This document shows positions 11,876 to 55,721 of a stretch of DNA of 64,000 nucleotides, piece by piece. The DNA is from an uncultured Bacteroidales bacterium (GTDB lineage: Bacteria; Bacteroidota; Bacteroidia; Bacteroidales; VadinHA17). A program made the translations under genes and the position numbers. The stretch covers positions 283,588-347,587 of the forward strand of contig CAVRBS010000014.1 in the NCBI GenBank assembly GCA_963719235.1, read 5' to 3'. Every line of letters starts with the position of its first letter. Positions within the stretch are counted from its first letter, which is position 1. The notes under the pieces were generated by a model. That model was not told where the DNA came from and did no database searches. It saw only the letters and a program-made list of their open reading frames with translations.

Positions 11876-11905
11876 ATCATAAACATTGGATAAAATTTAA
11901 ATATT

Positions 11906-12902
11906 ATGAAAATGAGAAAATATATTAAATATAAATTACTCGGGCTGGCGTTTATCGTCATCGGCATGGTTGCCTGCGATCAGGCAAGCCAGGAACCTGA
12001 ACCAATCGGAAGTCCTAACGGTTATCCGGTGAGTACAGTTACCCCAGCGGTTACAACTGTTGTGGAAGGTAATTCTTTAATAATCAATATCACTATCGAT
12101 AAAATGATCGACAGGGCACTTACCTTCACTTTCAGGCAAACAGGTGGTACTGCTAACGAAGAGGATTATACTGTTGAAGCTGCAGTATTAACACCCTACA
12201 CAAAATCAATCCAGATGGTGATAGAGACAATTGAGGACTTCGATACCGATCCAACTGAAACGTTGGTTGGAGAAATCGGTGTCTACGGGATCGCAGAAAA
12301 ATATATGCTGAATCCCAGCGCAGTCAATCCGGTGAATGTATCATTTACTATCACTAACTTTGTCTCTCCTGACTTGGGAGTTGATTTCTACTGGAATGCG
12401 GATGTGGTAATTGACGGAGATACGTATGATGCTGCTGACTATATTGACTTTGACTTCTATATTGCCGGATGCAGAAGGTTTCGATATCAGTGACCCATGG
12501 GCTAATGCTTATGCTGATTATAGAGCTGCTACTGGAAGCCACCCGGAATCAATAAACTTCGAAGGCTATGCAGATGGCACATACGTTCTATTCGCTGACC
12601 TGTATTATAATGATTTCGTAGGTTACAGCGACGGTTCAGTTAAGATTCCTATTGTTGCCTCATTCACACGTCAGGGAACCTCTGTGAATGAAACAGAAGT
12701 CGGAATGGATCCTGCAGAGATGATGGCTGACAACACAGCCGGTTTTGATAATGACCCGAGCGGCGTTTACAACGCAGCCATAGCAAAAGTCACTATCGCT
12801 GCCGGTAAGTACACCATCACCAAATACGATAATACGACTATCGGACCTGTTAAATCAGGTACTCCAAAGACACCCAGACCGCTTATCAATAAGACAAGAT
12901 AG
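11906..12902 (+). CDS. SusCD-associated lipoprotein with Calx-beta-like region (frameshift near 12465)
   Basis: MVAC lipobox; GGTANEEDY...ETLV Calx-beta-like pattern; two overlapping ORFs join into one gene. Confidence 0.7.
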
Positions 12903-13050: not shown

Positions 13051-16000
13051 CTAAATGGCTTTCGAATTTGCACGTTTATACATGAAGTTCGCCGCAAGCG
13101 CCAGAGCCACCAGCACAATCACCGCAACATAAACAAACACAGGTACCGGCACAGCATCACCTCCGGCATAAGAATGGAGCCCTGACAGGTAATAATTGAC
13201 CCCGAAGTAGGTCATGAGCACTGAAGAAAATGCAAAAAGGGAAAGGAGATTAAAAGCATAAACATCTTTCAGTCCGGGTATCATCCTCGAGTGAGTCACC
13301 AGAGTGTAAATAACTATAGTGATCAGTGACCATGTCTCCTTCGGATCCCATCCCCAGTAACGACCCCATGATTCGTTAGCCCACACAGCACCAAGGAAGG
13401 TCCCGATGGTCAGAAAATAAAGCCCCAGAGTCAGGGTCCTGTAATTGATGACCGTAAGCTCGTCTATCGTAGCGCTGATCCTCTCCTGGTTCTTTTTATT
13501 GACAAAGAGCATCATGATCATCACAATAAGGCCCAGGATAGCTCCCAGACCCAGGAACCCGTAACTGCCCGTAATCACCGAGACATGCAGTGTTAGCCAG
13601 TATGATTTGAGCACTGGCACCAGGTTCGTTATCTCAGGATCCATGAAGCTCATATGCGCTACCATAAGCGTCATCCCGGCCAGAACGGCCGTGGCTGCCA
13701 GCGCCAGAAGCGACTTGCGGCTGAAGATAAAGCCTGCCAGCATCGTGACCCACGAAATGAACAGCATTGATTCATAGCCGTTGCTCATGGGCGAATGGCC
13801 CGAAATGTACCACCTTATGCCCAGTCCTAACGTATGAAAGATAAATCCGGCCACGGCAAGACTGAACAATATTTTCATAAAAATGGAGCCTCCTCCCTTG
13901 CCGGTAATGATGAAGCTGATAAGGGCCATGATCATCAGAAGTCCCAGCGTGGCATAGAAAGGAAACAGCTTCTCAAAGATATTTGCCCTGTAATAGAAAA
14001 GCTCTGCCCTGATGCGTGACTCTGACGGAAGATCATACTCAGAATGAACCCGCTGATATTCCTTTATCGCCCGGAGATACTCTTCAGGCTTTGCCGGAGC
14101 GCTGCCCACAGCAGTGACAGCCTGGGCCCACATCGGAATGACATTGAGTACAAATAGCGAATCTTCAGCACCCGAAGCATGCCTGACAGCATCGCTGGCA
14201 GTTCCCCAATGGTCTGTCCCGTCTTTCAGCGGGAAGATATTCATGAAGCCCCCTTCAGACATCATATAACATATATTTACCCGCTCGTCAACCTTGATAA
14301 CCTCCTTGTCGAAGCGGGTCCGCTCACTTGCAGGTTTTGAATATGCCTTTTCAACGTACGCTGAAAGCTTATACCCTCCTCCGTCGCCAAAGGAAACGAT
14401 GTCCGAAAAAGCAGCCTTGTCGCCCTTCAGCTTCAGCAGACCTGATAACTCTGCATTTGAGACTTTAATAAGAGGCACATTCTGCCAGTGATAAGGGTCA
14501 AGAGAAAAACCCATGAAAACCTGCATAGGCGAGAGGCCTTCAAATTCCTTTTCCCTTGCAACCTTTCGTAAAATGTCACTGCTAATAGTATACAGCGGTT
14601 TGGTACGTCCCTTCTGATCCTGGGCAAGCACCTCCCCGAAACGGTTGGCTTCATCAATGTCAAGGACCAGATGCTGGGCCTTTAAAGGTGAGAGAGAAGT
14701 AAGGGCAAGAAGCATGAAAACCATTGCTGCCAGCCGGCGATACCGTGAATTCCAGTAACCCGTTCTTACGGTCCTGAAGAACGATCGCCTGTTGATTATC
14801 GAGAGAACAATGAACAGGAAAAGCAGGGCATAACCGGCATAGGTCGTAATCATACCTGCCGGATCATGGTTCACTGAGAGCACAGTGCCGAGCTCGTCCT
14901 TGTCATAAGATGACTGATAAAAGCGGAAACCCTTATACTTGAGAATATGATTCATGTATATATCATACTGAAAGTCAGCACCATGGTTTTCATCAATCAA
15001 TGTAACCCGGCTTTTAAAACCCGAAGGACTGTTGGAGCCCGGATACCGTTCAATAATAAAATCGTCAAGAGTGAGACTGAAGGGCAGATTAAGAAGCCTG
15101 TTTCCGTAGCTGACATTTACATTAAGATCTCCTGCAGTGCCGTGCCATTCCGATCTTTCTGCTTCAGGATTGTTCCACAGGTAAATCTTCTTTTCAAAGC
15201 CTTCTCCTGACAGTGTGAACTCAAAGGCGCCGGAACCTGCCTGATCAGTATTTTCAGATGACGGCGCCGGCACTGCCACTCCGCTGAGCGTCATCTGCCG
15301 GGGTACCAGTTTGTATCCTCCGATTGTATATACAGTGCCCGGAACTATGTTAATCAATGTATCGGGCGGGCATATTACCTTCGTCATATCCATCATCCTG
15401 GTCAGCACCATCTCTTTTCCGGATCTGATAAGGAAAGAAGAGCTGTCAAGTAATACAGTTATATCTGCATCAGTACCAAATCCCATGGTCATCTCTCCGG
15501 CCATTGCGGTCTCACCCTGAGCAAGTACAATTATTTCACTCGTCCTCATATCGCGGGTGGCGAGGAAAGCAACCATAGGAACCCCGTCAGGAGATTCTTC
15601 CACCTGTTTTACGGCACCGGGAATGTATCCGTCAAGCGTCAGTTTAACCGCACTTCCGCCAGCCTTGAGAGTCTTCCTGTAACCGGCACGACCGCCGCCG
15701 GCAACAGACAGAGCTTTTGAATGGCCTGCAAGCACAGTGTTATCCATATCAGCCACTTCAAAAACAAGGTCGCTGACCGAAGAATACGTCATTGATGAGG
15801 CCTCCCCCTCCCTGATGTGCATCATGCCGTCAAAACCCGTATAGCGGGTTATTGCCGCACCGATGACCATTACAATAAAGGCGAGATGGAATATCATAAC
15901 GGTAATCTTCTCTTTCCGGTACAGCTTGTATTTTATAATCTGTCCGGCAAGATTGATTACCAGGAGCAGAAACAGCAGCTCAAACCATCGTGTGTTGTAA

Positions 16001-16128
16001 ACCATTGACCTGGCCGTGTCAGCTCCGAAATCATTCTCAATGAATGTTGCTGCGGCCATGGCTGCTGCCAGCAAAATGAATAGTACACCCATTACTGCTG
16101 GAGTAAAAAGAAATCTAAATGCTTTCAT
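13051..16128 (-). CDS. ccsA: System II cytochrome c biogenesis fusion protein CcsBA
   Basis: N-terminal ResB-like TMs with FHLAF and MNHIL.YKGFRFYQSSYD; C-terminal WWD motif WANESWGRYWGWDPKETW and SGLHSY. Confidence 0.95.
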   Translation of the reverse strand: MKAFRFLFTPAVMGVLFILLAAAMAAATFIENDFGADTARSMVYNTRWFELLFLLLVINLAGQIIKYKLYRKEKITVMIFHLAFIVMVIGAAITRYTGFDGMMHIREGEASSMTYSSVSDLVFEVADMDNTVLAGHSKALSVAGGGRAGYRKTLKAGGSAVKLTLDGYIPGAVKQVEESPDGVPMVAFLATRDMRTSEIIVLAQGETAMAGEMTMGFGTDADITVLLDSSSFLIRSGKEMVLTRMMDMTKVICPPDTLINIVPGTVYTIGGYKLVPRQMTLSGVAVPAPSSENTDQAGSGAFEFTLSGEGFEKKIYLWNNPEAERSEWHGTAGDLNVNVSYGNRLLNLPFSLTLDDFIIERYPGSNSPSGFKSRVTLIDENHGADFQYDIYMNHILKYKGFRFYQSSYDKDELGTVLSVNHDPAGMITTYAGYALLFLFIVLSIINRRSFFRTVRTGYWNSRYRRLAAMVFMLLALTSLSPLKAQHLVLDIDEANRFGEVLAQDQKGRTKPLYTISSDILRKVAREKEFEGLSPMQVFMGFSLDPYHWQNVPLIKVSNAELSGLLKLKGDKAAFSDIVSFGDGGGYKLSAYVEKAYSKPASERTRFDKEVIKVDERVNICYMMSEGGFMNIFPLKDGTDHWGTASDAVRHASGAEDSLFVLNVIPMWAQAVTAVGSAPAKPEEYLRAIKEYQRVHSEYDLPSESRIRAELFYYRANIFEKLFPFYATLGLLMIMALISFIITGKGGGSIFMKILFSLAVAGFIFHTLGLGIRWYISGHSPMSNGYESMLFISWVTMLAGFIFSRKSLLALAATAVLAGMTLMVAHMSFMDPEITNLVPVLKSYWLTLHVSVITGSYGFLGLGAILGLIVMIMMLFVNKKNQERISATIDELTVINYRTLTLGLYFLTIGTFLGAVWANESWGRYWGWDPKETWSLITIVIYTLVTHSRMIPGLKDVYAFNLLSLFAFSSVLMTYFGVNYYLSGLHSYAGGDAVPVPVFVYVAVIVLVALALAANFMYKRANSKAI

Positions 16129-16149
16129 AACTTTAATTTGAATGCAAAA

Positions 16150-16845
16150 CTATCCTTTTTCGGATATTAAACGAAGCTTCTCACGCTTGAGGATCTTAAC
16201 GGAGCGTGGCGTCGCCTGAATGATCTTTTCATTTTCAAGCTCGCCCATTATTCTTACGACACTCTCTTTTGCCATATTGGTCATCTCCCCGAGTTCCTGA
16301 CGTGACAGCACCATCTCAAAACTGTCTGAATGAAAAAGTGTATCTGCAAAATAGAGCAGTGATTCCGCAAGTCTTCCATGCATCTTCTTCTGTGTCAGGT
16401 TTACCACTTTATGATGCATTCTGAATGCATTCTCACTGAGTTCTTCAATAAACCCCACGGCAAAATCCGGATTGCCTGCAATGAGCCGGCGAATGATGTC
16501 AAAGCTTATAAAGCAGGCCTGGACCGGGGTAATTGCAGCCACAGAATAACAGTATCTGGAATTGACATGAACACCCGGGCCTGCAAGCAGCGTTGATTGT
16601 CCGGCCAGATCAAGAATCAGGTTTCGTCCCGAGTACCCTTCCATGTATACTTTCGTAAGACCGGAAAGAATGAAGACAGCATTTGAGGACGGTGAGCCCT
16701 GCTTGATAATTATCTCCCCCTGGTTAAAACCGGCTTCATAACGGTTCCTGTTGACCAGCTCAAGCTCTTCTTTTGAAAGATTTCTAAAGTTGGTCCAGCA
16801 TTTTGAACAAACTTCACAACTTGATATTACGTTTTCACTAAACAT
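16150..16845 (-). CDS. Crp/Fnr-family transcriptional regulator with N-terminal Cys cluster
   Basis: CEVCSKC near N-terminus, cNMP-type domain, GRLAESLL and HTH LSRQELGEMTNMAKESVVR; ORF extends to 16902, MFSENV start preferred. Confidence 0.9.
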   Translation of the reverse strand: MFSENVISSCEVCSKCWTNFRNLSKEELELVNRNRYEAGFNQGEIIIKQGSPSSNAVFILSGLTKVYMEGYSGRNLILDLAGQSTLLAGPGVHVNSRYCYSVAAITPVQACFISFDIIRRLIAGNPDFAVGFIEELSENAFRMHHKVVNLTQKKMHGRLAESLLYFADTLFHSDSFEMVLSRQELGEMTNMAKESVVRIMGELENEKIIQATPRSVKILKREKLRLISEKG

Positions 16846-16905
16846 TGTTCCCTCCTGAAATTTGAAGTCAAACCTACTATAACACATATGCAATTTAGGC
16901 AAATA

Positions 16906-16986
16906 GTGATATATATCATATTTTAAATTGACCTATATCAATCATGTTGCTCTTACTTATCAATCTGTTGTTATTGAAATATCAAT
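16906..16986. promoter_or_regulatory. Phased Fnr-like binding-site array in the divergent fnr / cytochrome promoter
   Basis: GTGAT-ATAT-ATCAT (16906), TTGAC-CTAT-ATCAA (16928), further ATCAA half-sites at 16959 and 16981; period exactly 22 bp. Confidence 0.75.
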
Positions 16987-17059
16987 GAAACACCAAGTGT
17001 ATGCATCGCTTGTCTTGCTACCTTTCGCAATTGAATTATTAAAAAAAACCTGAAAATCT

Positions 17060-18256
17060 ATGAAGGGAAGTTTGAAGCTTTTTTCGTTGTTGGTCATGAC
17101 CGGGATGGTGATGATATCCTGTGAAGGTCCGATGGGTCCGATAGGTCCGCAGGGTGCGCAGGGTCCACAGGGAGAACCGGGAGTAACCGTTGCATGCACA
17201 GAGTGCCATAATCCTGGCGTTGTTGAGGCAAAAGCTGTCGAATATGAACATTCGCTTCATTTCAGCGGTGAAGCTTTTGAAGAAGGAACAAGGAACGCCT
17301 GTGCTCCCTGTCACTCAGATCAGGGTTTCAGGTATGTTGTTACGAACAACACCCCGGTAACTTTTGTTCCTGATCCGGCCAATGCAGGCAAATTTTTAAA
17401 TAGTTACAGTGTCGACGCCATTACCGCATCTCTGCCCGGACCAATAGGCTGTATGACCTGTCACAGTGCGCTCCATTCAACATATAGCGGGGACGACTTC
17501 TCGCCTCTCACGACAACTGCGGAAGTGCCACTGACAATGTATGGCGGGTCAAAAAGCATCAATTTCCCCAAGAACAAAGGAAATCTTTGCACCAAGTGTC
17601 ACCAGCCAAGACCTGTAACTGCTTCAACAGGAAATGTGATAGATTACTCACTGCTGGTCTCAGATAAGGCTACAAAATATACCCTGTCAAGCCTGAGCTA
17701 CAGGACTGGTATTCACTATGGATCACAGGGCTCAATTGCAGCCGGAGTTGGAGGCATACAATTCGGGACTGGCTACGCAAATTCAGCACATACTGCAAAT
17801 CTTTCATGCGGAAACTGCCACATGGCAGAACCAAGGACCCTTTCAGGGGGACATTCATTCAGCGCAGCCGGACTGTTTACGGGATGTAACGTAAGCGGAT
17901 GCCACTCATCGCTGAGCGCCACCAACCCGACTTATACCAACGTTGTTGATAATATTACAGGTTTGCTTGAGGATCTGGCAACAAAAATTAATGCTATAGG
18001 CGACGGTCATGATATTCTCCAGAAAGATCCTGAAGATGGCCAGTATCATGGTTACCTGGATATCTATGATGCAGGTTCAAATCCAACAGGTTACTGGAAG
18101 AATCCAGACCAGGGTAATGTTGCATTCCCGCCGATAACAAATGCGCAGTTCGGTGCAATTCTCAACTACCAGCTGGTATTCCGGGACGGAAGTCATGGTG
18201 TTCACAACTATCTGTACGCCAAGAAGCTTCTTGAAAATACTCTGGCAGCCTGGTAG
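17060..18256 (+). CDS. Multiheme (hexaheme) c-type cytochrome lipoprotein with collagen-like repeat
   Basis: MISC lipobox, then GPMGPIGPQGAQGPQGEPG; CTECH, CAPCH, CMTCH, CTKCH, CGNCH and atypical CNVSGCH. Confidence 0.9.
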   Translation: MKGSLKLFSLLVMTGMVMISCEGPMGPIGPQGAQGPQGEPGVTVACTECHNPGVVEAKAVEYEHSLHFSGEAFEEGTRNACAPCHSDQGFRYVVTNNTPVTFVPDPANAGKFLNSYSVDAITASLPGPIGCMTCHSALHSTYSGDDFSPLTTTAEVPLTMYGGSKSINFPKNKGNLCTKCHQPRPVTASTGNVIDYSLLVSDKATKYTLSSLSYRTGIHYGSQGSIAAGVGGIQFGTGYANSAHTANLSCGNCHMAEPRTLSGGHSFSAAGLFTGCNVSGCHSSLSATNPTYTNVVDNITGLLEDLATKINAIGDGHDILQKDPEDGQYHGYLDIYDAGSNPTGYWKNPDQGNVAFPPITNAQFGAILNYQLVFRDGSHGVHNYLYAKKLLENTLAAW

Positions 18257-18268
18257 AAAAACTAATTA

Positions 18269-18341
18269 TAAAAAGCTGTCTCACCAGGGGCAGCTTTTTA
18301 AATATAATAAAGAAGGCTGCTTCGTTCGAGGCAGCCTTCTT
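18269..18341. terminator. Two adjacent terminator hairpins between convergent cytochrome genes
   Basis: AAAAGCTGTCTC...GGGGCAGCTTTT and AAGAAGGCTGCTTCG-tt-CGAGGCAGCCTTCTT. Confidence 0.75.
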
Positions 18342-18361
18342 CAATTTTGAAAAGAGGTTCT

Positions 18362-18772
18362 TTATTTCTTAAAACTCCTCATGTAATGAACCAATGCCCA
18401 GATTTCATTATCAGGAATTTTCTTGTCAAATGAAGGCATCTCATTACGCCCTGTCTTGGTTCTGTAGAATAGCTCACCATCTGTAGAGGCCTGAAAATCA
18501 GCTGACGTAAAGTCACCAGGATGGGTTTTACCCATTCTTCCTTTCACTCCGTCACCAAGTCCTGTCTTGCCATGACATGATGCACAGTTCTTTGACCATG
18601 ATGACGTACCCAGTTTCATGGTAGCATCATCAGCTGCCACGGGGTTTGCTTTAGCTTTCTCAGTTGCAGGAACAGGCCACGGTTCAGCTTTCTTCTGACT
18701 CTGTGCGTTCATCACCTGAGAAAAGGAGAAGGTCAGCAGAAGAGCACTAACAAATACTGATTTGAATTTCAT
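18362..18772 (-). CDS. Periplasmic monoheme class I cytochrome c
   Basis: Signal peptide, NPV motif, CASCHG, GRNEMP distal Met, IWALVHYMR. Confidence 0.92.
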   Translation of the reverse strand: MKFKSVFVSALLLTFSFSQVMNAQSQKKAEPWPVPATEKAKANPVAADDATMKLGTSSWSKNCASCHGKTGLGDGVKGRMGKTHPGDFTSADFQASTDGELFYRTKTGRNEMPSFDKKIPDNEIWALVHYMRSFKK

Positions 18773-18859
18773 AGTCTTACATTATTAGTTATACATAGCA
18801 GTTATCACTTATCATGCCAAAAGTAAATATTTTTATATTGAGATCCCTTTTGCACAAAA

Positions 18860-19032
18860 GAGGCTGGATCAAAAGTTACCTCCTCCCCCTGACGCTTACG
18901 GTCAGGGTACTCCTCCTTATTAAGGGGGATAAAGTTAAAATATTTAAATTCAATCATTTCCCCTCCTTTTTTTAAGGAGGGGTGTCCGCCAGCTGGCGGA
19001 CAGGGTGATAAATATACTTTTGATACAGCCTC
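18860..19032. mobile_element. 173-bp MITE-like element with 17-bp terminal inverted repeats
   Basis: GAGGCTGGATCAAAAGT (18860-18876) vs reverse complement of ACTTTTGATACAGCCTC (19016-19032), 16/17 match; internal hairpins; no ORF. Confidence 0.75.
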
Positions 19033-19050
19033 CCTTAAATTTTCAGAAGC

Positions 19051-19470
19051 TTACTGCTTTAGGGATTTCATGTAAATGACCATTTTCCAGATATCGTCAT
19101 CAGGAATTTTCTTGTCATAGGCAGGCATCTCTCCTCTGCCAAATTTTGTCTGGTAAAACAAGGTGCCCTCACTGTATGCCTGAAATTCGGCACCTGAGAA
19201 ATCTCCGGGGAATACTTTGCACATTCTTCCTTTGGGACCGTCACCCTTGCCAAGCTTGCCATGACATGAAGCACAATTCTTGTCATAAGCCGTTTTGCCC
19301 GCTGCAAGTGTCGTTGCATCGCTGGCCACGGGATTTTTCATAGTTTTATACTCAGCCGGGATTGTCCACGGTTCGCCCTTCTTCTGCTGCTGACCGTAAG
19401 CGGTGACAGACATCACGGCAAAAACTGCTGTCAGCATCATGACTGAAATAGTTTTAAATGTTCTTTTCAT
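19051..19470 (-). CDS. Periplasmic monoheme class I cytochrome c (paralog of 18362-18772)
   Basis: Signal peptide, KNCASCHGK, GRGEMPAYDKKIPD. Confidence 0.92.
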   Translation of the reverse strand: MKRTFKTISVMMLTAVFAVMSVTAYGQQQKKGEPWTIPAEYKTMKNPVASDATTLAAGKTAYDKNCASCHGKLGKGDGPKGRMCKVFPGDFSGAEFQAYSEGTLFYQTKFGRGEMPAYDKKIPDDDIWKMVIYMKSLKQ

Positions 19471-19496
19471 ACAAATTGCTTTTAATTAGACTCATA

Positions 19497-20117
19497 TTAA
19501 TGACTCTCCTGCCAGCCAGTGACAATGCTCCTGAAATTACTCAGAGGCGACTTGCCCATTGTGCTGACATAAAGATGAATAAACAAAAATATCACAATCA
19601 GGAAACCAAGAACCACATGAAACTGGTCCGTAAGGAAAATTCCGCTTAAACCCAGGAATTTTTTAAGAATAAATTCCGGAAACATCAGGGCCCATCCGGT
19701 GATAAAGAGCATCGGCAGGGCAAAATACATCACCGCGATATATGATACCTGCTGCAGCGGATTGAATTTACGGTCCTGCCCGACAGGGTAAGGAGCCTTC
19801 TCCCCCCTGAAATATCCAAAGGCATAATAGTAGCCCTGCTTCCATAGTCTGGTACCCATTCCTTTAATCTGTACCAGATAATGTTTTCCGTTCGGGGTAA
19901 AAAGGTTGCCGGCCAGAAATACAGTATAACTTATTGTAAGCAGGATACCGCAAACGTTATGGATTGAAACGGCCCGTTGAAATTTAACCACCAGAGCGTT
20001 ATCAGGATTGGAATAAAGCATGCTGAATCCTGTCACAATCAAGAAAAGACACAAAATGGCATTGGCAAGGTGCCACAGTCTCACCCATACAGGATAGTGA
20101 TAAAAATTACTGCTCAT
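19497..20117 (-). CDS. Diheme cytochrome b membrane subunit (Ni/Fe-hydrogenase/PhsC/CbcB-type)
   Basis: Four TM segments with His in RLWH, SIH, QFH and FIHLY; KFNPLQ motif. Confidence 0.88.
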   Translation of the reverse strand: MSSNFYHYPVWVRLWHLANAILCLFLIVTGFSMLYSNPDNALVVKFQRAVSIHNVCGILLTISYTVFLAGNLFTPNGKHYLVQIKGMGTRLWKQGYYYAFGYFRGEKAPYPVGQDRKFNPLQQVSYIAVMYFALPMLFITGWALMFPEFILKKFLGLSGIFLTDQFHVVLGFLIVIFLFIHLYVSTMGKSPLSNFRSIVTGWQESH

Positions 20118-21133
20118 GATAGCGTTTAACAGGTTTAATTATAATCCTGAAAATTGTATGTATTAAGCCGATTGCAAGAGTTCATGCCAATAATCAGCAT
20201 ACCTGCCATGGAAATGAACTTGCTTCGGTTTGCACCTATCACATAAGAGTCATTTCTAAGCATCACTCCATTGACAAAGCCTTTTTCACTGCGGTTCTCC
20301 TTTGAAGCATGTTTATAAAGCGTTCCCATCAGTATGGAATTCTTGTTATGACAGTCCGAGCAGCTTTTTACGGAACTGTCGGCAGGCATAACCTCATGTG
20401 CTACCAGAATGCTGTCGCTCATGCGTGTATGGCAGTCAATGCATCTTACAGCTTCGAGATGCCGGTCGACATTGGGCAACCATTCATGTTTCGGCAATAC
20501 AATGCCCAGGTCTGTCTCAGCTATCAGACCCATTATGTCAGCATTACCGTGACAGCGGAGGCACATTTCATTTGACTTCAGTATATAATCACGGCCACCG
20601 GTGGTCTGACGTGCCAATGGATTATAGTAATGAGCATCATGACATTTCCAGCATGTGACCAGACCTTCAGTTGCCGTATAATGAATACTTTTCTGGTACT
20701 CGGCATCAATCTCCTCAAACCCGTACTGTGCATAGTTGGGATCATATCCGTGACAGTCTATACAACTCCATGATGTCTCAAAACGAGCCTCCATAGGGTG
20801 AGGAAAACTTTTGAAACCTTCCGAATGACAATCAAGACAGTTAAAGCTCCAGTGCACGGAATTATAAAAAAGATCCGGGCTCACCACATTGTGTTGCGAC
20901 ATAAGTTGTTTCCTGCTTACCCCGGAAACCGTATCAGTCAGGGTATAAACCATTCTGCCGTGACAGACAAGACAGTTCTGCTCATTCTGTTCAGCATAGA
21001 GACTTAATTCAGCACCTTTTTTTGCCGTTGTATCCTGCTTCTCAGCCCCAGCGTCCTGTGCACGAAGTGGACTCAGGAATGCGAACGCGAGCAGAAATAA
21101 AAGTGAAACTTTCCCAGGGATCATCCGAAGCAC
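20107..21133 (-). CDS. Heptaheme c-type cytochrome with C-terminal membrane anchor (CbcA-like; 1-nt frameshift near 20182)
   Basis: Signal peptide; CLVCH, CLDCH, CIDCH, CWKCH, CLRCH, CIDCH, CSDCH. Removing one base gives TM tail MAGMLIIGMTLAIGLIHTIFR...YHEQ-stop at 20107, overlapping the cytochrome b start. Confidence 0.88.
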
Positions 21134-21141
21134 GGCTACCG

Positions 21142-21978
21142 TTAAAATCTTACAGTAATATTAAGCCCGATCAGGTAGTTGAAGTCGCTGATGCTGTTCT
21201 GATTGTACAGGAAATTGTACTGTCCCAGAATGTCATGGTAATTGGCGAAAAATATCTGGAAGGCGTGTGTTGCCGTTCCGATCTCCCAGCCTGCAGCAAG
21301 CTGCGGCTTTGGGTCAAACTCGGGATTTTCCTGTTTGGTGAGAAGCTGATCGTATTCCAGAATAAGGCTGTGCGAGCCGAAAAGGCTGACTTTTGCACCT
21401 GCGGAGAAGCCGAAATTTGCATTCTTATATCCTACCTCAACAGCATTGAAATAAATAAATGTAGGCGCCAGCTGTAATGACAGTTTGCTGAATTGCTTTG
21501 CAACCAGCACCTGTGTGAAATAATTGAGCCTGTGAATTTCCCTCCAGTCGTCAGCGGCTGATCCGAAATTATCCTTGCTGCGAAGATCAATGCCCATATT
21601 GCCGTACAATGCAACTGAAACAGGCATCGAACCTGATTCAGTCTGCCGGAAAAGAGCATATTTCACAGAAAGATCCTGCGCCATGTAGTTCTTTGCAGTA
21701 CCCACTCCTATGACCAGCTTGTCCGTTATAGCATAATTGAGTCCTAACCTGATATTAGCCGGGCCCCAGAGACCGAACAGGTCATCAAAACCATTGTTGA
21801 CAGTACCAAACCTGTGATGTATCTCAAACTCCAGCATGCCTTTAAAGGGAGTTGTTACCGTTTGATTGTCAATTAAAATGCTGGTTTCAAATAATCTGAC
21901 GGGATAATCCTCGCTTTCCTGGCTGAATGCAGGGACAAACAGCAGCGCGAGAATAATCAATAAGAATGCCTTTTTCAT
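21142..21978 (-). CDS. Outer-membrane beta-barrel protein (DUF5777-like)
   Basis: MKKAFLLIIL signal; FETSILIDNQT...LEFEIHHRFG, IGTATHAFQIFFAN, alternating strands, C-terminal ITVRF. Confidence 0.8.
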   Translation of the reverse strand: MKKAFLLIILALLFVPAFSQESEDYPVRLFETSILIDNQTVTTPFKGMLEFEIHHRFGTVNNGFDDLFGLWGPANIRLGLNYAITDKLVIGVGTAKNYMAQDLSVKYALFRQTESGSMPVSVALYGNMGIDLRSKDNFGSAADDWREIHRLNYFTQVLVAKQFSKLSLQLAPTFIYFNAVEVGYKNANFGFSAGAKVSLFGSHSLILEYDQLLTKQENPEFDPKPQLAAGWEIGTATHAFQIFFANYHDILGQYNFLYNQNSISDFNYLIGLNITVRF

Positions 21979-22000
21979 AGTTATCTGGATTATTAGGTTT

Positions 22001-22381
22001 TTATTTTTTATTGTTTTTGGCTCCTTGTGATGCCCACAGCTTAATGACATCGTTAAAATAATACGTAACGGTGTCGTTAACCTGTACGGGAGTATTGAAG
22101 TTGTTTACGCTGCCATGTATCACAAAAATATGGCTGTCATCCGGATTTACAGTGTCAACTTCCGAAACGAGCTCATTGTAAATCTTATTCCGCGTCCATG
22201 TGTGACAGCCTGAGCATTTAGGCAGAATGTGCTGTTCAAAGCTGATAATAATATCTTCGTTTATTACCGGTGGTTCAGGCGGTGTCCACAAGTACTTTTC
22301 ACATGAAGAGAGGCCTGCAAGACCTATCGCAATAACCGCGAAGGCAAGCACCCTGAAAAATCTATCCTTTCTTGTCATCAT
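22001..22381 (-). CDS. Small monoheme cytochrome c lipoprotein
   Basis: LSSC lipobox, Pro-rich linker, ISFEQHILPKCSGCH, IKLWASQGAKNN C-terminus typical of Bacteroidota/planctomycete-type cytochrome c domains. Confidence 0.8.
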   Translation of the reverse strand: MMTRKDRFFRVLAFAVIAIGLAGLSSCEKYLWTPPEPPVINEDIIISFEQHILPKCSGCHTWTRNKIYNELVSEVDTVNPDDSHIFVIHGSVNNFNTPVQVNDTVTYYFNDVIKLWASQGAKNNKK

Positions 22382-22404
22382 TATTTTTATTGTTATTTAA
22401 AAAA

Positions 22405-22524
22405 CAAAGATATCAGAATAAGATATCGGATTTTTTCAGACGGTACCTTATTTAGTTGATTGATAGCTGCTTCTTATCAATCATTAAATTGATATAAATC
22501 GCACATATGGATGATAAATATCAA
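22405..22524 (-). promoter_or_regulatory. Promoter of the minus-strand cytochrome operon with phased Fnr-like boxes
   Basis: -7 element TATCTTTG (22405-22412, - strand); boxes CTGCT-TCTT-ATCAA (22467), TTGAT-ATAA-ATCGC (22489), ATGAT-AAAT-ATCAA (22511), 22-bp period. Confidence 0.75.
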
Positions 22525-22562
22525 GTCAGGCCAAATTCAAATCGCCGGCCGCCATTGATATG

Positions 22563-24344
22563 TCAGAACTTGTAAGAATTATCATCAATCAGCCTGTCAG
22601 CGACATGCCGTCTGGCCTCTTTGACATTGACACATTCCTGCCTGGTGAGTTTTTCAATGGCCTGAACAAGAACAGGATATGTCTCAGGCGAAGAGAATGA
22701 AGCGATTGCTTCAAGGGCTGAGCTTCTTACTATACCTGCAGTCTCGAACAGGTTGACGTCAAGCATATCCTTATATACTGAAACGTCACCCCTGATGGTG
22801 CTGAGCTTTTCCACCCTCAGTGCCAGCAATTCGGAAACATAAGTCTCCATCATCATCTCGGCTATGTTGTTCAGCACTTCCTGTTCATGTATCAGTCCTT
22901 TCCCGAAGTTTTTCGTGGCGTGATGCATGCAGATGAGTATTGCCTTCTTGAAATTCCTGATATATCTTGTCCTTGTCTGGAAATAGCTCTCTCCTTCCTT
23001 TTTGCCATCAGTGATATCAGCCAACCCGGAGCATAGTTTTTCTGCTTCACCGTACAGGTCGAAATCGCCCTTCAGTGCACGTTTCATCGCGGTGTCAACC
23101 ACAAGCAGGCGGTTAATCTCGTTGGTGCCCTCAAATATCCTGTTGATTCTGGAATCACGGTAACCTCTCTCCACCGCCATCTCTGCCGAATAACCCATGC
23201 CTCCGTGTATCTGGACTGCCTCATCAATAATAAAATCAAGCATTTCAGACCCGATGACCTTAAGTATGGCTGCTTCAACAGCATAGTGGCTTATGCCCTC
23301 AATGGCAGCTCTTCCGTGATCGTTTCCGTCGGAGAGTTCATTTATTAGGAGGTCGATATCCTTGCTTACCCTGTATACGGCCGATTCTGTGGCAAAAAGC
23401 CGGATCACCTGCCCGGCAAGCTTATGCTTTATAGCTCCGAATGTTGAAATAAATACGCCGAACTGCTTCCTTTCGTTTGCATACCTGACTAAATCATTGA
23501 TGGCCTTCTTTGCAGCACCGATAACATTTGCGCCAAGCTTGAGCCTTCCCATGTGAAGGATGCTCAGTGCGATCCTGAATCCCTCTCCCCTCTTGCCCAA
23601 AAGGTTCTCAACCGGTACTTTGACGTCATTAAAGTAGATCTGGGCTGTGGATGAGCCTTTGATGCCCATTTTATGCTCGTCGGGACCAATCACCACACCG
23701 GGATAAACAGTTTCAACGATGAATGCGCTGAGTACCCTGTCGACGTCAATCTTGGCGAACACTATCAGCGTATCGGCGAAACCGGCGTTCGTAATCCACA
23801 TCTTCTGTCCGTTGAGAATGTAATGTTTTCCGTCCTCGCTGAGCTTTGCATTTGTCTTGCCTGAGTTGGCATCGCTGCCTGCTCCCGGTTCGGTAAGGCA
23901 GTAGGCCCCGAGAAGCTCTCCGGTCGCCAGCTTCGGAACATAGCGCTCGCGCTGCTCCTGGTTGCCGTAATACATGATAGGCAGTGTCCCTATACCGCAA
24001 TGCGCCATGAATGACACTGAGAAAGAATATCCTGCACCGATGGTCTCAGCCACCAGCATCTGGGTGACAAACGATTGCCCGAAACCGCCATACTCTTCAG
24101 GAATAGAAATGCCCAGCAGACCCAGTTCTCCCGATTTTTTCAGAATGTTTTTCATCAGTTCCCTGTCGCTCTTCTCAACCTGTTCAAGGTTGGGATAAAC
24201 TTCGGCCTGAAGAAAATCGCTGCATGTCTGGGCGATCATCTTCTGTTCCTCATCGAATTCTTCAGGGATGAAAATATCTTTTGCTTCAATCTCCCTTACC
24301 AGAAATTCACCGCTTTTCAGAGTGTTACTGTTTTCCATGGTCAT
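22563..24344 (-). CDS. Acyl-CoA dehydrogenase (long FadE-type with C-terminal domain)
   Basis: AYCLTEPGAGSDA, LNGQKMWITN, RKQFG, QIHGGMGY, RINRIFEGTNEINR. Confidence 0.95.
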   Translation of the reverse strand: MTMENSNTLKSGEFLVREIEAKDIFIPEEFDEEQKMIAQTCSDFLQAEVYPNLEQVEKSDRELMKNILKKSGELGLLGISIPEEYGGFGQSFVTQMLVAETIGAGYSFSVSFMAHCGIGTLPIMYYGNQEQRERYVPKLATGELLGAYCLTEPGAGSDANSGKTNAKLSEDGKHYILNGQKMWITNAGFADTLIVFAKIDVDRVLSAFIVETVYPGVVIGPDEHKMGIKGSSTAQIYFNDVKVPVENLLGKRGEGFRIALSILHMGRLKLGANVIGAAKKAINDLVRYANERKQFGVFISTFGAIKHKLAGQVIRLFATESAVYRVSKDIDLLINELSDGNDHGRAAIEGISHYAVEAAILKVIGSEMLDFIIDEAVQIHGGMGYSAEMAVERGYRDSRINRIFEGTNEINRLLVVDTAMKRALKGDFDLYGEAEKLCSGLADITDGKKEGESYFQTRTRYIRNFKKAILICMHHATKNFGKGLIHEQEVLNNIAEMMMETYVSELLALRVEKLSTIRGDVSVYKDMLDVNLFETAGIVRSSALEAIASFSSPETYPVLVQAIEKLTRQECVNVKEARRHVADRLIDDNSYKF

Positions 24345-24364
24345 ATATTAAGTTTTTGATAATT

Positions 24365-26449
24365 CTATAATTCAAGCGACTGTGCAATCAGCTCAGCCAT
24401 GTCAAGGTTGCGGACATCGTCTTCCCTGTTCTTGTATTTAAGTCCGTCAGTAAGCATTGTCATGCAGAACGGACAGGCAGATGCAATTACCTCTGCTCCG
24501 GCCCTGAGAGCTTCCTCAGTCCTTTCAATGAACACTTCTTTTTCTCCTTTCTCTGCCTCCTTGAACATCTGTGCCCCTCCGGCGCCGCAGCATAATGCGA
24601 AGCTCCCGTGTCTCTCCATCTCGGTAAAAGCCCCTGTCAGCCTGTTGAGAAGGGCCCTGGGCTCATCATAAATCTCATTTGCCCGGCCAAGATAACAGGG
24701 GTCATGATATGTGACTTTCGTTCCCTTCAGCGATCCGGCATTGATACTCAGCTTGCCTTCATCAGCATACCTGTTCAGGAACTGGAGATAGTTGATCACC
24801 TCATAGCTGCCGCCAAGGTCAGGGTATTCATTCTTAAAAATATTGAAACAGTGCGGACAGGTGGTGATAATCTTTTTTACACCGTATGATTTGAGTATTT
24901 CTATCACCTGCAGTGCCTGCATCTGGAAGAGCATCTCGTTTCCAGCGCGCCTTGCCGGGTCACCGGTGCATGTCTCCTCACTGCCCAGCACGGCATAATT
25001 TATTTTCAGGTGGTTCAGTATCTTCACGAAAGCCCTGACAACCTTTTTATACCTGTCATCAAAAGCCCCTGCACAGCCCACCCAGAAAAGATACTCCGCG
25101 GTTGTGCCCTTTGCGGCATAATCAGACATGAGCGGCACGCTGAAGCTCAGGTCTTTGGCCCATAGCATTCTGTCTTCCGAAGAATACTGCCACGGAGCTC
25201 CGTTATTCTCGATATTGCTGAACACGGTCTTGAGCTCGCCGGGAGCCGATGCCTCCTCCATGACAAGATATCTTCTCATGTCGACTATCAGGGAGGGATG
25301 GTTGATGTTTATCGGGCACTCGGTTGCACAGGCGTTGCAGGTGGTGCAGGCCCATAATTCCTCTTCGGTAATATAATCTCTCAGAAGTGACTTATTGTCG
25401 CTGTAATCCTTGCCGTTCCTGGTCATCAGGGGTCCCTTCTCCTTCATCCTTTCCCTGAGATCCATCATCACCTTGCGGGGTGACAGCTTCTTGCCCGTGA
25501 TGTTCGCAGGACATACCGAGGTGCAGCGTCCGCATTGGGTGCAGGAAAGTGAATCGAAGTATGTTTTCCAGACCACATCCTCCGCGTCCTTTACCCCGAA
25601 GCGCTCGACGGGGACATCAGAAGGCGCTGCTGCAAAAGCGGTATCAGGGTTCATCATAAGCCTTACTTCCCTTGTGACATTATCCATGTTTGTCAGCTTA
25701 CCCAGCGGCTCGAGACGCGAAAGGAACACGTTGGGAACAGACAGGAAGACATGGAAATGCTTTGAATACGGCAATACATTCGCAAAAACGAATATAGAGA
25801 GTATGTGCGTCCACCAGCAAACCTCGTACAGGGTATGCATGGACTCCGGTGACTTGTTTCCAATCAGACCGGCCAGCCACGCGCTGACAGGATAAGTTCC
25901 TTTCATCTGTTCCCCCGAGAGGATCCTGCCTCCGGCATAGCCTGTGTTCATGCCTGCCAGCGAAATCATCAGCAGGAGTATCAGCGAAAGAGCAACAATA
26001 GCATCGATATGAGATATCCTTTTCATCTCAATGCCTTCGAAACGTCTGATATGAAGAAATATACGCCTTACAAGAAATATTATGACGGCTATGGCGACTA
26101 TGTATGCGAAGATATCGCCTGATCCCATCAGGAACCCGTAAAAACCGCCGAGGAAAGATAGTGACTTGTCTGTTCCGGCTAACCCGTCAATCACCATCTC
26201 GATACTGCCGAACAGGATTATGCAAAAACCCCAGAACACCAGCGCATGAGCCAGTCCTATCAACGGCCTGCGGAAGATCTTTGTCTGTCCGAAGGCGACC
26301 TTCAGCATAACGCCAAACCTTTTCCCGATCTGTTTAACGGGGAAACCGGGCCTGGTAAGTTTGAAGAACCCGACGATCCTGCGGATGGTAAAGGCGAACA
26401 CTCCAAGCGTCACAAGAAGTGCCAGTGCGAACACCACCTGTCTGATCAT
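24365..26449 (-). CDS. Membrane heme b/Fe-S oxidoreductase (FadF / ETF:menaquinone oxidoreductase-like)
   Basis: N-terminal TMs with [17 protein letters not shown]; two CxxCxxCxxxCP ferredoxin motifs; two CCG domains; adjacent to etfAB and an ACAD. Confidence 0.9.
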
Positions 26450-27414
26450 TTCTTCAGCTCTTTTACTGCCTCAACAAGCTTTGGCAGAACCTTCTGCGCA
26501 TCTCCGACGATACCGTATTGGGCAACCTCAAAGATAGGGGCGTCCTTGTCAGTATTGACCGCGACGATAAATTTTGATGAGCTGACTCCTGCCAGGTGCT
26601 GGGTAGCGCCTGAAATACCTACCGCAATATACAGATTGGGGGCAATAACCTTTCCCGTCTGTCCGGTATGCTCTTCATGAGACCTCCATCCTTCATCCGA
26701 GACAGGTCGTGAGCAGGCTGTGGCAGCGCCAAGGGCTCCTGCAAGCTCAACAAGGGGACCCCAGTTGTCAGGAGATTTCATCCCCCTGCCACCGGACACA
26801 ACTATCTCGGCATCGGTGAGCAGCAACTTGCCAGTCTGCTTCTGAGAATCTTTAACGACAGTCCTGGCCAGCGAGCTGTCAACAGTGATATTGTAGTTCT
26901 CAATTGATGAATTGTTTGGTGTTTCGACAAGGTCAAAAGAATTCTGTGAAAGGGTGATTATTTTAATCTCTGTATTTATGACCATATGTGCGAAAGCGTT
27001 GCCCGAGTAAGCCCTCTTATAGACTGTAAAAGGTTCAAGGCTAAGCGGCAGTTTGCTTACACCTGAAGCCATCCCGGCTTTCAACCGTACTGATAACCGC
27101 GGAGCGACAGCCTTTCCTTCATTGTTGTTTGAGATAATGATTACCCGGGCATCTTCTTTCAGGGCTGCCTGTGCGATAATATCTGTATACACCTGATTAT
27201 CAAGTGTTTTACAGTATTCATTGTTGACCCTGATAATCTTTTTCGCGCCGTAATTTCCAAGCTTACTGAGCTCTTCATCACCTGCGGCTCCTATTGACAG
27301 ACAGACTAATGATGTATTAAGCAGCTCAGCAACCTTTGACCCGTAGGAAACCAGTTCAAAAGATGATTTCTTGAATTTGCCGTCCCAGTTCTGGGTATAT
27401 ACTAAAACTGACAT
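26446..27414 (-). CDS. etfA: Electron transfer flavoprotein alpha subunit
   Basis: [44 protein letters not shown]. Confidence 0.96.
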
Positions 27415-27440
27415 AGTTTATGTGTTTTTATGTTTGTTGA

Positions 27441-28190
27441 TCAGATGACCTTGGCTTCGTTCTGGAGAAGTGCTATCAGCTGGCCGGCATTCTCCGGGTC
27501 AATGAACTTGCAGGCAGCTCGGGGAGAGGGTTTTTCAAAGACCAGGATGCCGGTCAGTGGTTCTGCTGGTTCAGGCTCATAAATTCTTACAGGCTTTGTC
27601 CTTGCAGTCATAATACCGCGCATTGAAGCAATCCGGGGTTCCTTCGCAATTCCTTTCTGGACAATTGCCACGAACGGCATCGGCACGGATATTAATTCCC
27701 GTCCTCCGTCTATCTCACGGGTAAGAACGGGAGAGCTGTTTTCGATCTTGATATCTGACACGGCAGAAACAGAAGGAATGCCGAGAAACTCAGCAATCAT
27801 GCCGCCTGTCATTGATCCGTTATAATCGCTCAATTCAATCCCGCACAGGATGACATCAAACTGCTCCTTCCTGATCACCGCGGCAAGCTGGGCAGCGACA
27901 AAATATGAATCAGCCGGCACGGCATTTACTCGAAAAGCGTCGTCCGCTCCTATCGCCAGGGCTTTGCGTATGGTCGGCTCTGATGCGGGAGGCCCGACAT
28001 GTGCCACCGTTACCGACTTGACTCCCGCTGATGCATCATCCTTTAACTCAAGGGCACGAGTCAACGAAAGCTCATCCCAGGGATTAATAACCCATTGGAT
28101 ACCCGTAGTGTCAAGCCTGGTGTCGCTCTCCACGAATTTGACTTTCGTGGTTGTGTCCGGAACATTGCTAATACAAACTAAGATCTTCAT
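27441..28190 (-). CDS. etfB: Electron transfer flavoprotein beta subunit
   Basis: MKILVCISNVPDT, INPWDE, RKALAIGAD, REIDGG, EPRIASMRGIM. Confidence 0.96.
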   Translation of the reverse strand: MKILVCISNVPDTTTKVKFVESDTRLDTTGIQWVINPWDELSLTRALELKDDASAGVKSVTVAHVGPPASEPTIRKALAIGADDAFRVNAVPADSYFVAAQLAAVIRKEQFDVILCGIELSDYNGSMTGGMIAEFLGIPSVSAVSDIKIENSSPVLTREIDGGRELISVPMPFVAIVQKGIAKEPRIASMRGIMTARTKPVRIYEPEPAEPLTGILVFEKPSPRAACKFIDPENAGQLIALLQNEAKVI

Positions 28191-29275: not shown

Positions 29276-29348
29276 AGCTCCATGAAATAACCTCTCCGGC
29301 CCTCCCGTTTTACTGATAGTATTATCTTTGCTTTCAAGTTTTCGGGAT

Positions 29349-30365
29349 ATGAAGCGACCGCTCCTTGCCTACCTCTCTCTTATTGCATTTCTGCCGGTAA
29401 GCGGTCAGACCGGCGGTGACAACACCTATGAGTTTCTGAATCTCAGCCACTCGGCCTTTGCAACTGCCACAGGCGGAATGACAGTCTCGCAAAGCAGAAA
29501 CGACCTCAGCCTGCCTTATTTTAACCCTGCCCTGCTCACAGGCGCAATGAACAATGACATATCACTGAGCTTTTCCACATATTTTGCCGGGATAAATTAC
29601 GGATATGCCGCATGGGCAAGGGATATGGATAAAAGAGGTACCCTGGCGGCCGGCCTGAGCTTCATCAGCTACGGCAGCTTCACCGAAGCGGATGCTGAAG
29701 GGAACATAAACGGCACATTCACTGCCGCTGAATATGCTTTCAATGTGATCTGGTCACTCCGGATTGATTCATCCTTTACCGTGGGGGTAAACCTTAAACC
29801 CGTTTTTTCACATCTTGAGCGTTATTTCTCGGCAGGGCTATGTGCTGATATAGGTGCCACCTACCATAACCAGAAGCTGCTCCTTGATGCAGGCCTGGTT
29901 ATCAGGAATGCCGGGTTTCAAATAAAAAGTTATACCGGAGAAGGAGGAGAGCCTCTTCCTTTTGAGATCATTGCCGGAGCCACCAAAAGGCTTGAGCATG
30001 CACCCTTTAGCTTCTCTCTCACATTCAGGCATATAGAAAAACCTGACCTCACCTATGATTATGATACAGGCGATGATATCCCTGCCGGCGGCTTCGGAGA
30101 AAACCTGCTGAGACATATCATCTTTGGCATCGAGATCTTACCTGCAGACGTATTCTGGCTGGGAGCCGGACTTAATTACCAGCGGAGATCAGAGATGCGC
30201 ATCGAGCAGAGAGCAGGCATGACAGGTTTCTCGGCTGGTTTTGGGATCAGGACAAAGGCTTTTGAGCTTGCTTACGGACGTGACGCTTTTCATCTTGCAG
30301 GTGCATCCAATCACGTGACTATCACTCTCAGACCTGAGGTGATTTTCAAAAATACAACACCATGA
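29349..30365 (+). CDS. porQ: Type IX secretion system protein PorQ
   Basis: GGDNTYEFLNL..SA...A.GG, NPALL, beta-strand pattern, directly upstream of cmk as usual in Bacteroidota; TATCTTTG at 29323. Confidence 0.85.
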   Translation: MKRPLLAYLSLIAFLPVSGQTGGDNTYEFLNLSHSAFATATGGMTVSQSRNDLSLPYFNPALLTGAMNNDISLSFSTYFAGINYGYAAWARDMDKRGTLAAGLSFISYGSFTEADAEGNINGTFTAAEYAFNVIWSLRIDSSFTVGVNLKPVFSHLERYFSAGLCADIGATYHNQKLLLDAGLVIRNAGFQIKSYTGEGGEPLPFEIIAGATKRLEHAPFSFSLTFRHIEKPDLTYDYDTGDDIPAGGFGENLLRHIIFGIEILPADVFWLGAGLNYQRRSEMRIEQRAGMTGFSAGFGIRTKAFELAYGRDAFHLAGASNHVTITLRPEVIFKNTTP

Positions 30366-55635: not shown

Positions 55636-55721
55636 AGCTATGCAGGTGTTGTGTAATAGTATCTGATTCGAATCAATATATAAAGATAAGAAAAGCTTCG
55701 GTTGTTAATTTATCTGGTTGT

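Follow-up and report, generated by a model that had tools for sequence, protein, structure and literature searches.

A conserved Bacteroidota gene cluster with a CbcBA-like inner-membrane pair, a DUF5777 barrel and an OmhA-related hexahaem lipoprotein: a candidate module for extracellular electron transfer

Cyc2, the cytochrome-porin fusion of iron oxidisers, carries an N-terminal monohaem domain and a C-terminal barrel in one polypeptide, and the MtrCAB and Pcc/Ext systems combine a quinol oxidase, periplasmic carriers, an outer-membrane barrel and a lipoprotein multihaem cytochrome. At the inner membrane of Geobacter sulfurreducens, the bc-type menaquinol oxidase CbcBA (Cbc5) consists, according to the accessible portions of two reports (10.1101/2021.04.15.440034; 10.1101/2023.05.03.539133), of a four-helix dihaem b subunit usually annotated "thiosulfate reductase-like" and a seven-haem c subunit whose one C-terminal helix supplies a histidine. 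The accessible part of the earlier report (Joshi et al., 2021; 10.1101/2021.04.15.440034) also mentions homologous cbcBA clusters in Bacteroidetes and proposes them as a marker of extracellular electron transfer. Among cell-surface cytochromes, OcwA is described in the available text of PMC6703420 as the proposed terminal reductase of Thermincola, turning over nitrite slowly. Here, we analyse a locus at positions 13051 to 28190 of a 64-kb stretch of DNA, referred to below as the window, from the metagenome-assembled genome (MAG) of an uncultured freshwater/sediment Bacteroidales bacterium. This locus is a real, conserved respiratory module of Bacteroidota, and it is best explained as a putative anaerobic respiratory branch under FNR-type regulation. 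Our best reading, to which we assign a probability of roughly 45%, is that the branch would serve extracellular electron transfer, moving electrons from menaquinol to the outer membrane and an external acceptor. Although anoxic sediments, digesters and soils harbour many Bacteroidota, the phylum is seldom regarded as respiring minerals or electrodes, a question that a conserved cluster would make directly testable.

Genes were called from open reading frames (ORFs) and haem-motif counts, followed by Pfam and NCBIfam family scans. Every gene that a first-pass annotation of the stretch had named was found in the locus (Table 1), and its count of 16 haem c motifs was confirmed as 15 CxxCH plus one Cx4CH (7 + 6 + 1 + 1 + 1). 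The core of the module is made up of a Crp/Fnr-family regulator, a small haem lipoprotein, a DUF5777 barrel, one or more monohaem cytochromes, a heptahaem protein, a cytochrome b and a hexahaem lipoprotein, a membership that we assign because these genes co-occur in related loci. An alignment scan of species-representative genomes with the cytochrome b gave 189 related loci, mainly from uncultured Bacteroidales/Bacteroidota MAGs with a few labelled otherwise (e.g., Omnitrophica or Clostridia MAGs); 80 loci were kept, and co-occurrence was counted in the 48 of these that had complete 10-kb flanks. The heptahaem protein was present in all 48 loci, the barrel and the regulator in 47 each, and a monohaem cytochrome homologue and the hexahaem lipoprotein in 46 each. 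Co-occurrence was stable across bands of cytochrome b identity (at least 79%, 30 loci; 60 to 78%, 5 loci; below 60%, 13 loci), the core genes being found in 46 to 48 of the 48 loci down to 50% identity, and they stayed linked despite rearrangements of gene order between loci. The small haem lipoprotein diverges fast and gave a tblastn match in only 37 of the 48 loci; of the 28 loci with a resolved barrel ORF, however, 27 had an ORF with a lipobox and a Cx2-4CH motif immediately upstream of it, the other 20 loci being dropped as unresolved.

Closer to the window, a search for DUF5777 gave matches in the genomes of 26 of 41 relatives, among them 18 of the 24 from the genus. When 18 of the relatives' regions were compared, 11, all from the same genus, carried the complete set with its gene order unchanged; the set was rearranged in two that came from other families of the order, and the remaining five contained unrelated DUF5777 paralogues. 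The core genes of the quinol-to-surface system proposed by the first-pass annotation thus do co-occur in relatives. Represented in 189 species-level genomes in one scan, the cluster would join a known type of low-potential quinol oxidase to a terminal cytochrome whose relatives include proven iron reductases of the cell surface. The proposal had also held that the arrangement was undescribed. This needs to be narrowed in view of the cbcBA homologues already reported from Bacteroidetes, but for the rest it stands: no description of the whole cluster, of its outer-membrane module or of an OmhA-like stalked lipoprotein was found in the literature searched, the scope of which did not extend to subscription journals and supplements.

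The cytochrome b shows four hydrophobic helices by eye, and His16, His53, His167 and His181 are invariant in its alignment. Among curated models it comes closest to that of the thiosulfate reductase PhsC (164 bits, below the cut-off of 204 bits), and its database relatives carry the label "thiosulfate reductase cytochrome b"; the 120 listed of 4316 homologues were all close relatives. In relatives, the heptahaem protein has about 338 residues and an intact C-terminal membrane helix with a conserved histidine, and its stop codon overlaps the start of the cytochrome b gene. Against solved structures, the cytochrome b gave no meaningful match and the heptahaem protein gave weak matches only (best E-value, 3.3e-4). 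By analogy with the published description, the pair has the architecture of CbcBA, namely, adjacent genes for a separate four-helix dihaem cytochrome b with a "thiosulfate reductase-like" label and for a seven-haem cytochrome c with a single histidine-bearing C-terminal membrane helix; the assignment leans on the statement of the CbcBA authors and on an Atlas lead to Thermodesulfobacteriota clusters. The two systems differ in their regulation, which is of the Crp/Fnr type here (47 of 48 loci), whereas Geobacter uses a sigma-54 system with a BccR-type regulator. They differ also in their partners, since the pair is linked here to a DUF5777 barrel, class-I monohaem cytochromes and an OmhA-like lipoprotein, in contrast to the triheme Ppc carriers and Pcc/Ext conduits of Geobacter.

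In the window itself, the heptahaem gene carries one extra base at position 20181, which shifts the reading frame inside the C-terminal membrane helix and removes the conserved histidine. Near-identical contigs occur in freshwater and sediment metagenomes (runs X1 to X3), one of which may be the source of the window. The extra base is absent from the short-read contigs of X2 (depth 10.8 of 14.9) and X3 (5.91 of 5.91), the two runs covered by this check, the X1 contigs not spanning position 20181; it is therefore probably an assembly error or a strain variant rather than a sign that the system is decaying.

We then consider the regulator and the promoters. The regulator matched cNMP-like and HTH_Crp_2 domains, with all curated FNR/FixK models far below cut-off. 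All 17 orthologues compared share its Cys29, Cys32 and Cys130, while Cys35 and Cys118 are conserved in only 5 and 4 of them, respectively; the conserved cysteines are compatible with an FNR-like sensor. The intergenic regions 16903-17059 and 22382-22562, which together make up 338 bp or 0.5% of the window, hold 7 of its 16 copies of TATCAAT, three in the former at 16936, 16958 and 16980 with a spacing of 22 bp and four in the latter. Each of these cytochrome promoter regions also contains a TGAT-N4-ATCA palindrome, TGATATATATCA at 16907-16918 in the divergent promoter region and TGATAAATATCA at 22512-22523 in that of the monohaem lipoprotein, a palindrome found 8 times in the window compared with 2.2 expected. 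The repeat arrays of both promoters are kept in the closest relatives. The matching operator arrays noticed earlier at both cytochrome promoters are thus real. A window-wide enrichment of TATCAAT was rejected (16 copies compared with 12.5 expected, a number reached by 17 of 100 shuffles), only the clustering in the two intergenic regions being notable.

A profile built from 23 hexahaem lipoproteins matched OmhA (6qvm_A; E-value, 2.3e-12) over residues 324 to 670, the C-terminal six-haem part, with all six haem motifs and the C-terminal helix motif aligned; further matches were to NrfA (3ubr_A, 7.5e-9) and to octahaem nitrite reductases (ONRs) at about 1e-7 (2ot4_A, 1.1e-7). By profile comparison, the protein thus belongs to the NrfA/ONR/OcwA/OmhA superfamily. 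Its nearest solved relative, OmhA (PDB 6QVM), and OcwA (PDB 6I5B) are cell-surface multihaem cytochromes of Gram-positive iron reducers and lie within the NrfA/ONR/MccA superfamily. They carry nine or eleven haems compared with six here, one OmhA haem motif lacking a counterpart in the aligned stretch, and the protein of the window differs from both in being a diderm lipoprotein with a collagen-like stalk and no surface-layer (S-layer) or cell-wall context. The match of the hexahaem protein to an MtrC domain was weak (26.3 bits, below the 30-bit cut-off), as were the MtrC matches of the cytochromes overall.

Two features of the hexahaem family are conserved beyond the haem motifs. First, its alignment shows six invariant or nearly invariant non-motif histidines for the six haems, which fits bis-histidine electron-transfer haems while leaving room for an open site; the protein of the window has no CxxCK motif. 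Second, 3 to 10 unbroken Gly-X-Y triplets, mostly 7 or 8, lie between the lipid-anchor cysteine and haem 1 in 65 of 66 homologues. The protein of the window has about 7 such triplets after the lipobox residue Cys21, followed by the six haem motifs, and in the aligned rows shown haem 1 begins one to four residues past the repeat. The Gly-X-Y segment suggests a collagen-like, trimeric stalk, of which no description on a multihaem lipoprotein was found in the literature searched.

The barrel was recognised in Pfam and NCBIfam scans as DUF5777 only, without a match to the MtrB/PioB family, and no literature on DUF5777 was found. Its structure model, of about 260 residues, has 12 strands (predicted local distance difference test [pLDDT], 80.7; predicted template modelling score, 0.74). 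The fold matched NanC, VhGalP and FapF with template modelling scores of 0.56 to 0.68 at 8 to 13% identity (0.65 to 0.68 for NanC and VhGalP) and was also similar to KdgM, the best matches being 12- to 14-strand channels. His79 and His262 are invariant in 28 barrel sequences, within the motifs I-x-H-R-F-G and T-x-T-H-A-F, and could conceivably form a cofactor or metal site. The family of the neighbouring small lipoprotein keeps the lipidated cysteine (Cys27), a proline-rich linker, the Cx2-4CH motif and the C-terminus W..QGA.NN. Predicted as a complex with haem, the barrel and the small lipoprotein scored 0.59 compared with 0.01 for the best control, with runs agreeing in at least 69% of contacts and a partner pLDDT of at least 80. 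Of 80 solved complexes, 58 reached the mark used for such predictions, as did 2 of 110 mismatched pairs, but only 7 of the 80 did so with scores of 0.60 or below, a range that also held both passing mismatches, and the prediction thus lends weak support to a complex of the two proteins.

A putative redox role for the barrel is supported by its paralogues, because these pair with small redox proteins, sometimes of a surface type. In a first sample of the 30 best-scoring DUF5777 loci (29 resolved; 1.5-kb flanks), 16 had a neighbour with a haem motif and 3 more had a Rieske neighbour. In a second sample of 20 loci spread across the score range, a same-strand neighbour with Cx2-4CH was found in 14, whereas the identical criterion picked out 41 of 447 genes drawn at random from the window's genome. 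Among the partners, Pfam recognised PSCyt1-like monohaem lipoproteins, YceI proteins, cupredoxin lipoproteins and Rieske proteins; in five loci (L119, L129, L140, L020 and L027), other DUF5777 paralogues stand beside Rieske proteins or cupredoxin lipoproteins. Partners with surface features are a cupredoxin with a type IX secretion system C-terminal sorting domain (L133), a cytochrome with SprB repeats (L127) and a dihaem lipoprotein with He_PIG/cadherin-like domains (L135). Of 401 Bacteroidota genomes sampled, 167 encode DUF5777, and its pairing with small redox proteins points to an undescribed outer-membrane redox function, maybe well beyond this locus and including aerobic Flavobacteria-type genomes.

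On the basis of these parts, extracellular electron transfer would proceed as follows. The CbcBA-type complex would oxidise menaquinol, and one to three soluble class-I monohaem cytochromes would carry the electrons over the periplasm to the small haem lipoprotein and the 12-strand DUF5777 barrel at the outer membrane. The OmhA/OcwA-type hexahaem lipoprotein, on its short collagen-like and probably trimeric stalk, would be the terminal component, and the acceptor would be extracellular or poorly soluble, e.g., Fe(III)/Mn(IV) minerals, humics or a partner cell. Passage past the barrel might involve the proline-rich linker of the small lipoprotein being threaded through it, which is one possibility. 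A more specific version, in which a DUF5777 12-strand barrel and a small redox lipoprotein (haem c, cupredoxin or Rieske) form an unrecognised trans-outer-membrane electron gate that is widespread in Bacteroidota and is joined here to a CbcBA-type oxidase and hands electrons on to an OmhA-like hexahaem reductase that a trimeric collagen-like stalk displays, is a tentative proposal that we regard as rather doubtful. If true, it would constitute a third architecture for extracellular electron transfer in diderms, beside Mtr/Pcc sheaths and Cyc2 fusions.

Several points weigh against electrons leaving the cell by this module. The likeness of the inner-membrane pair to CbcBA is one of architecture, by published description. 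To our knowledge, none of the known conduits for electrons across the outer membrane uses a barrel this small. A barrel of the modelled 12 strands cannot sheath a multihaem cytochrome, which argues against an Mtr/Pcc-type conduit; the porin-cytochrome analogy drawn by the first-pass annotation therefore fails structurally, the barrel being far too small compared with a large sheath of 20 or more strands, and no periplasmic decahaem or octahaem insert is encoded. The structure model of the hexahaem protein is poor (pLDDT, 63), with three long C-terminal helices at low confidence, and a fold search with it gave no significant match. The genome encodes haem-copper oxidases, next to whose genes lie paralogues of the monohaem cytochromes at 33% identity. 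Because its superfamily includes enzymes such as NrfA and the octahaem nitrite reductases, the hexahaem lipoprotein could be catalytic on a soluble substrate. Finally, the export signals defined experimentally for Bacteroidota lipoproteins in the accessible part of PMC5080379, C-X-K-(D/E)2, SDDDD or SDDFE after the cysteine, are absent from both lipoproteins of the window (C-E-G-P-M and C-E-K-Y-L), and distant homologues likewise lack them (C-T-K-E-G-P and C-E-Y-E-F). By the known export rule, both lipoproteins would face the periplasm, so that the surface exposure assumed at first is not borne out by this signal. The missing signal and the small barrel are together the chief argument against exposure at the surface. 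What stands of the proposed electron chain, besides the co-occurrence of its core genes, is that two of its parts, the CbcBA-type oxidase and the OmhA/OcwA-type cytochrome, are nearest to extracellular electron transfer systems; the conduit analogy and the export signal do not speak for it. A match of the hexahaem model to the MccA fold was not significant (E-value, 7.9) and was not used.

These same observations bear on the alternative that survives best, a periplasmic chain, which we nevertheless consider unlikely. Here, the hexahaem lipoprotein would be an NrfA-superfamily reductase on the inner face of the outer membrane, acting on a soluble substrate (a nitrogen or sulfur oxyanion or a chelated metal), with the DUF5777 barrel as a substrate channel or anchor and the small haem lipoprotein as an accessory electron donor. 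Besides the absence of an export signal and the profile matches to NrfA and the octahaem nitrite reductases, this explanation can draw on a His-His or His-Tyr position in the hexahaem family that aligns with the "HH" of OmhA, and on the statement, in the available portions of PMC9250108 and PMC6703420, that OmhA and OcwA have penta-coordinated haems and that OcwA reduces nitrite and hydroxylamine in vitro; barrels of the 12-strand NanC, KdgM and Tsx types are, moreover, channels for small solutes. The lack of a CxxCK motif argues in the opposite direction, as do the six extra histidines, which would suit six bis-histidine electron-transfer haems, and the fact that the closest solved relative is a surface iron-reducing cytochrome and not NrfA. 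The many different small redox proteins with which DUF5777 pairs likewise point to a role in electron transfer rather than to a single substrate channel. The first-pass annotation had stated that the locus encodes no catalytic terminal reductase. Motif and family scans of positions 13051 to 28190 indeed gave no molybdenum enzyme, CxxCK motif, haem-copper oxidase or hydrogenase, but with an NrfA-superfamily member in the locus the broader statement is insecure. If the periplasmic chain were the true explanation, the NrfA superfamily would still gain a new branch, one with six haems and an unusual, collagen-like anchor.

Electrons could also flow inward, which appears improbable to us. The small haem lipoprotein and the barrel would then work like a Cyc2 divided over two proteins. 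Their electrons would come from Fe(II), a reduced mineral or a partner and would go on through the monohaem cytochromes, either to haem-copper oxidases or, uphill, to the quinone pool by way of the CbcBA-like complex. As in Cyc2, which is likened here by description only, one haem c domain is genetically coupled to an outer-membrane barrel of modest size; the arrangement in the window differs in comprising two genes, a cytochrome that is a lipoprotein and a 12-strand barrel model. The barrel and the small lipoprotein were two genes in every locus examined, and a search for longer fused DUF5777 forms (530 to 2000 residues) found none, which is weak evidence. The monohaem cytochromes weakly resemble cytochrome 579 and cbb3-associated domains below threshold, one paralogous small cytochrome has a weak, sub-threshold match to PccH (E-value, 6e-4), and oxidases with a paralogous cytochrome c beside them are present in the genome. 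Two genomes with a verified complete cluster, G006 (92% complete) and G016 (96% complete), gave no COX1 match, and the cluster is therefore not tied to oxidases. Inward flow is further opposed by the conserved cysteines of the FNR-like regulator, more typical of anaerobic induction, and by the nearest described relatives, CbcBA and OmhA/OcwA, which work outwards. The oxidase genes themselves lie in three nearly identical clusters on separate contigs, with COX1 at C1:24644-25975, C2:23990-25321 and C18:30739-32071 and a class-I cytochrome c paralogue about 2 kb upstream of each; these may be strain duplicates in the MAG.

That the inner-membrane pair is instead an alternative quinol:cytochrome c oxidoreductase, substituting for bc1 or alternative complex III and feeding the aerobic or microaerobic oxidases through the monohaem cytochromes beside unrelated outer-membrane genes, is suggested by the haem-copper oxidases, the PF13442 class-I cytochromes and their paralogues next to the oxidases, but it is very improbable given that the barrel and the hexahaem lipoprotein (with the small lipoprotein) stay linked to the pair in 46 to 47 of the 48 loci through rearrangements and that carriers of the cluster without COX1 exist.

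Table 1. Positions in the window, strands and supporting evidence for the features of the locus
Feature	Position	Strand	Evidence
CcsBA (fused ResB/CcsB, system II cytochrome c maturase)	13051..16128	-	TIGR03144, 195.2 bits (cut-off, 187.6); PF01578; PF05140 (ResB)
Crp/Fnr-family regulator	16150..16902	-	PF13545; PF00027
Divergent promoter region	16903..17059		TATCAAT repeats and palindrome
Hexahaem lipoprotein, 398 residues	17060..18256	+ (divergent)	Lipobox Cys21; five CxxCH and one Cx4CH
Periplasmic class-I monohaem cytochrome c, copy 2	18362..18772	-	PF13442, 4.2e-13; signal peptide by eye
Hairpin-rich repeat element between the two monohaem genes	18834..19049		Not part of the system
Periplasmic class-I monohaem cytochrome c, copy 1	19051..19470	-	PF13442, 2.9e-13
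Dihaem cytochrome b, CbcB-like/PhsC-like, 206 residues	19497..20117	-	PF01292, 1.4e-21; NF011582, 164 bits (below cut-off of 204)
Heptahaem cytochrome c, CbcA-like, 332 residues in the window	20135..21133	-	Seven CxxCH
DUF5777 outer-membrane beta-barrel	21142..22050	-	PF19089, 223.3 bits (cut-off, 23.1), full model length
Small monohaem lipoprotein, 126 residues	22001..22381	-	Lipobox Cys27; one CxxCH
Promoter region of the monohaem-lipoprotein operon	22382..22562		TATCAAT sites and palindrome
Acyl-CoA dehydrogenase, membrane Fe-S/CCG oxidoreductase, EtfA, EtfB	22563..28190	-	Family scans; quinone-reducing neighbour

The likely starts of two genes differ from the ORF calls, with Met20 (around 16845) being the probable start of the regulator and Met25 (around 21978) that of the barrel. 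The two monohaem cytochromes have 136 to 139 residues each, with signal peptides. The hairpin-rich element between their genes, about 200 bp in length, is skipped by the contigs of metagenome runs X2 and X3 and reaches a word depth of about 598 in run X1; it looks like a miniature repeat insertion.

Both ends of the locus are occupied by genes that we rejected as parts of the system, since their place beside it is confined to the genus and its near relatives. The electron transfer flavoprotein (ETF)/quinone-reducing module noted earlier is present upstream, but its adjacency reflects synteny at the genus level: EtfA was found in 30 of the 48 loci, 7 with the window's type of ETF and 23 with another type, and ETF was absent from 18. 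CcsBA was found in 32 of the 48 loci and in none of the 13 most distant ones. Upstream of CcsBA, three ORFs at 11102-12902 of the window (+) matched no Pfam family. On the other side, a conserved secreted protein of 345 residues (29328-30365, +) adjoins an EamA transporter; it likewise has no Pfam family, and the label "PorV" for this ORF is unsupported, Pfam having given no match.

A hint of expression comes from a sediment metatranscriptome (X20; 0.05 of words), in which 12 short contigs covered the 3' end of the hexahaem gene, both monohaem genes and the start of the cytochrome b gene, and one contig of 142 nucleotides showed no differences from the window; an RNA library can hold DNA.

The genome as a whole is rich in multihaem cytochromes and encodes three molybdoenzymes elsewhere. 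On contig C11 (31548-34195), two adjacent ORFs with 13 and 20 CxxCH motifs may represent one very large multihaem cytochrome split by a frameshift. Within the window, a stand-alone protein of 499 residues (53667-55166, -) combines six CxxCH motifs with a NapC/NirT N-terminal domain (PF03264, 2e-11) and may be an ImcH-like second quinol oxidase; the intergenic region upstream of its gene contains, like the promoters of the cluster, a TGAT-N4-ATCA palindrome, at 55664-55675.

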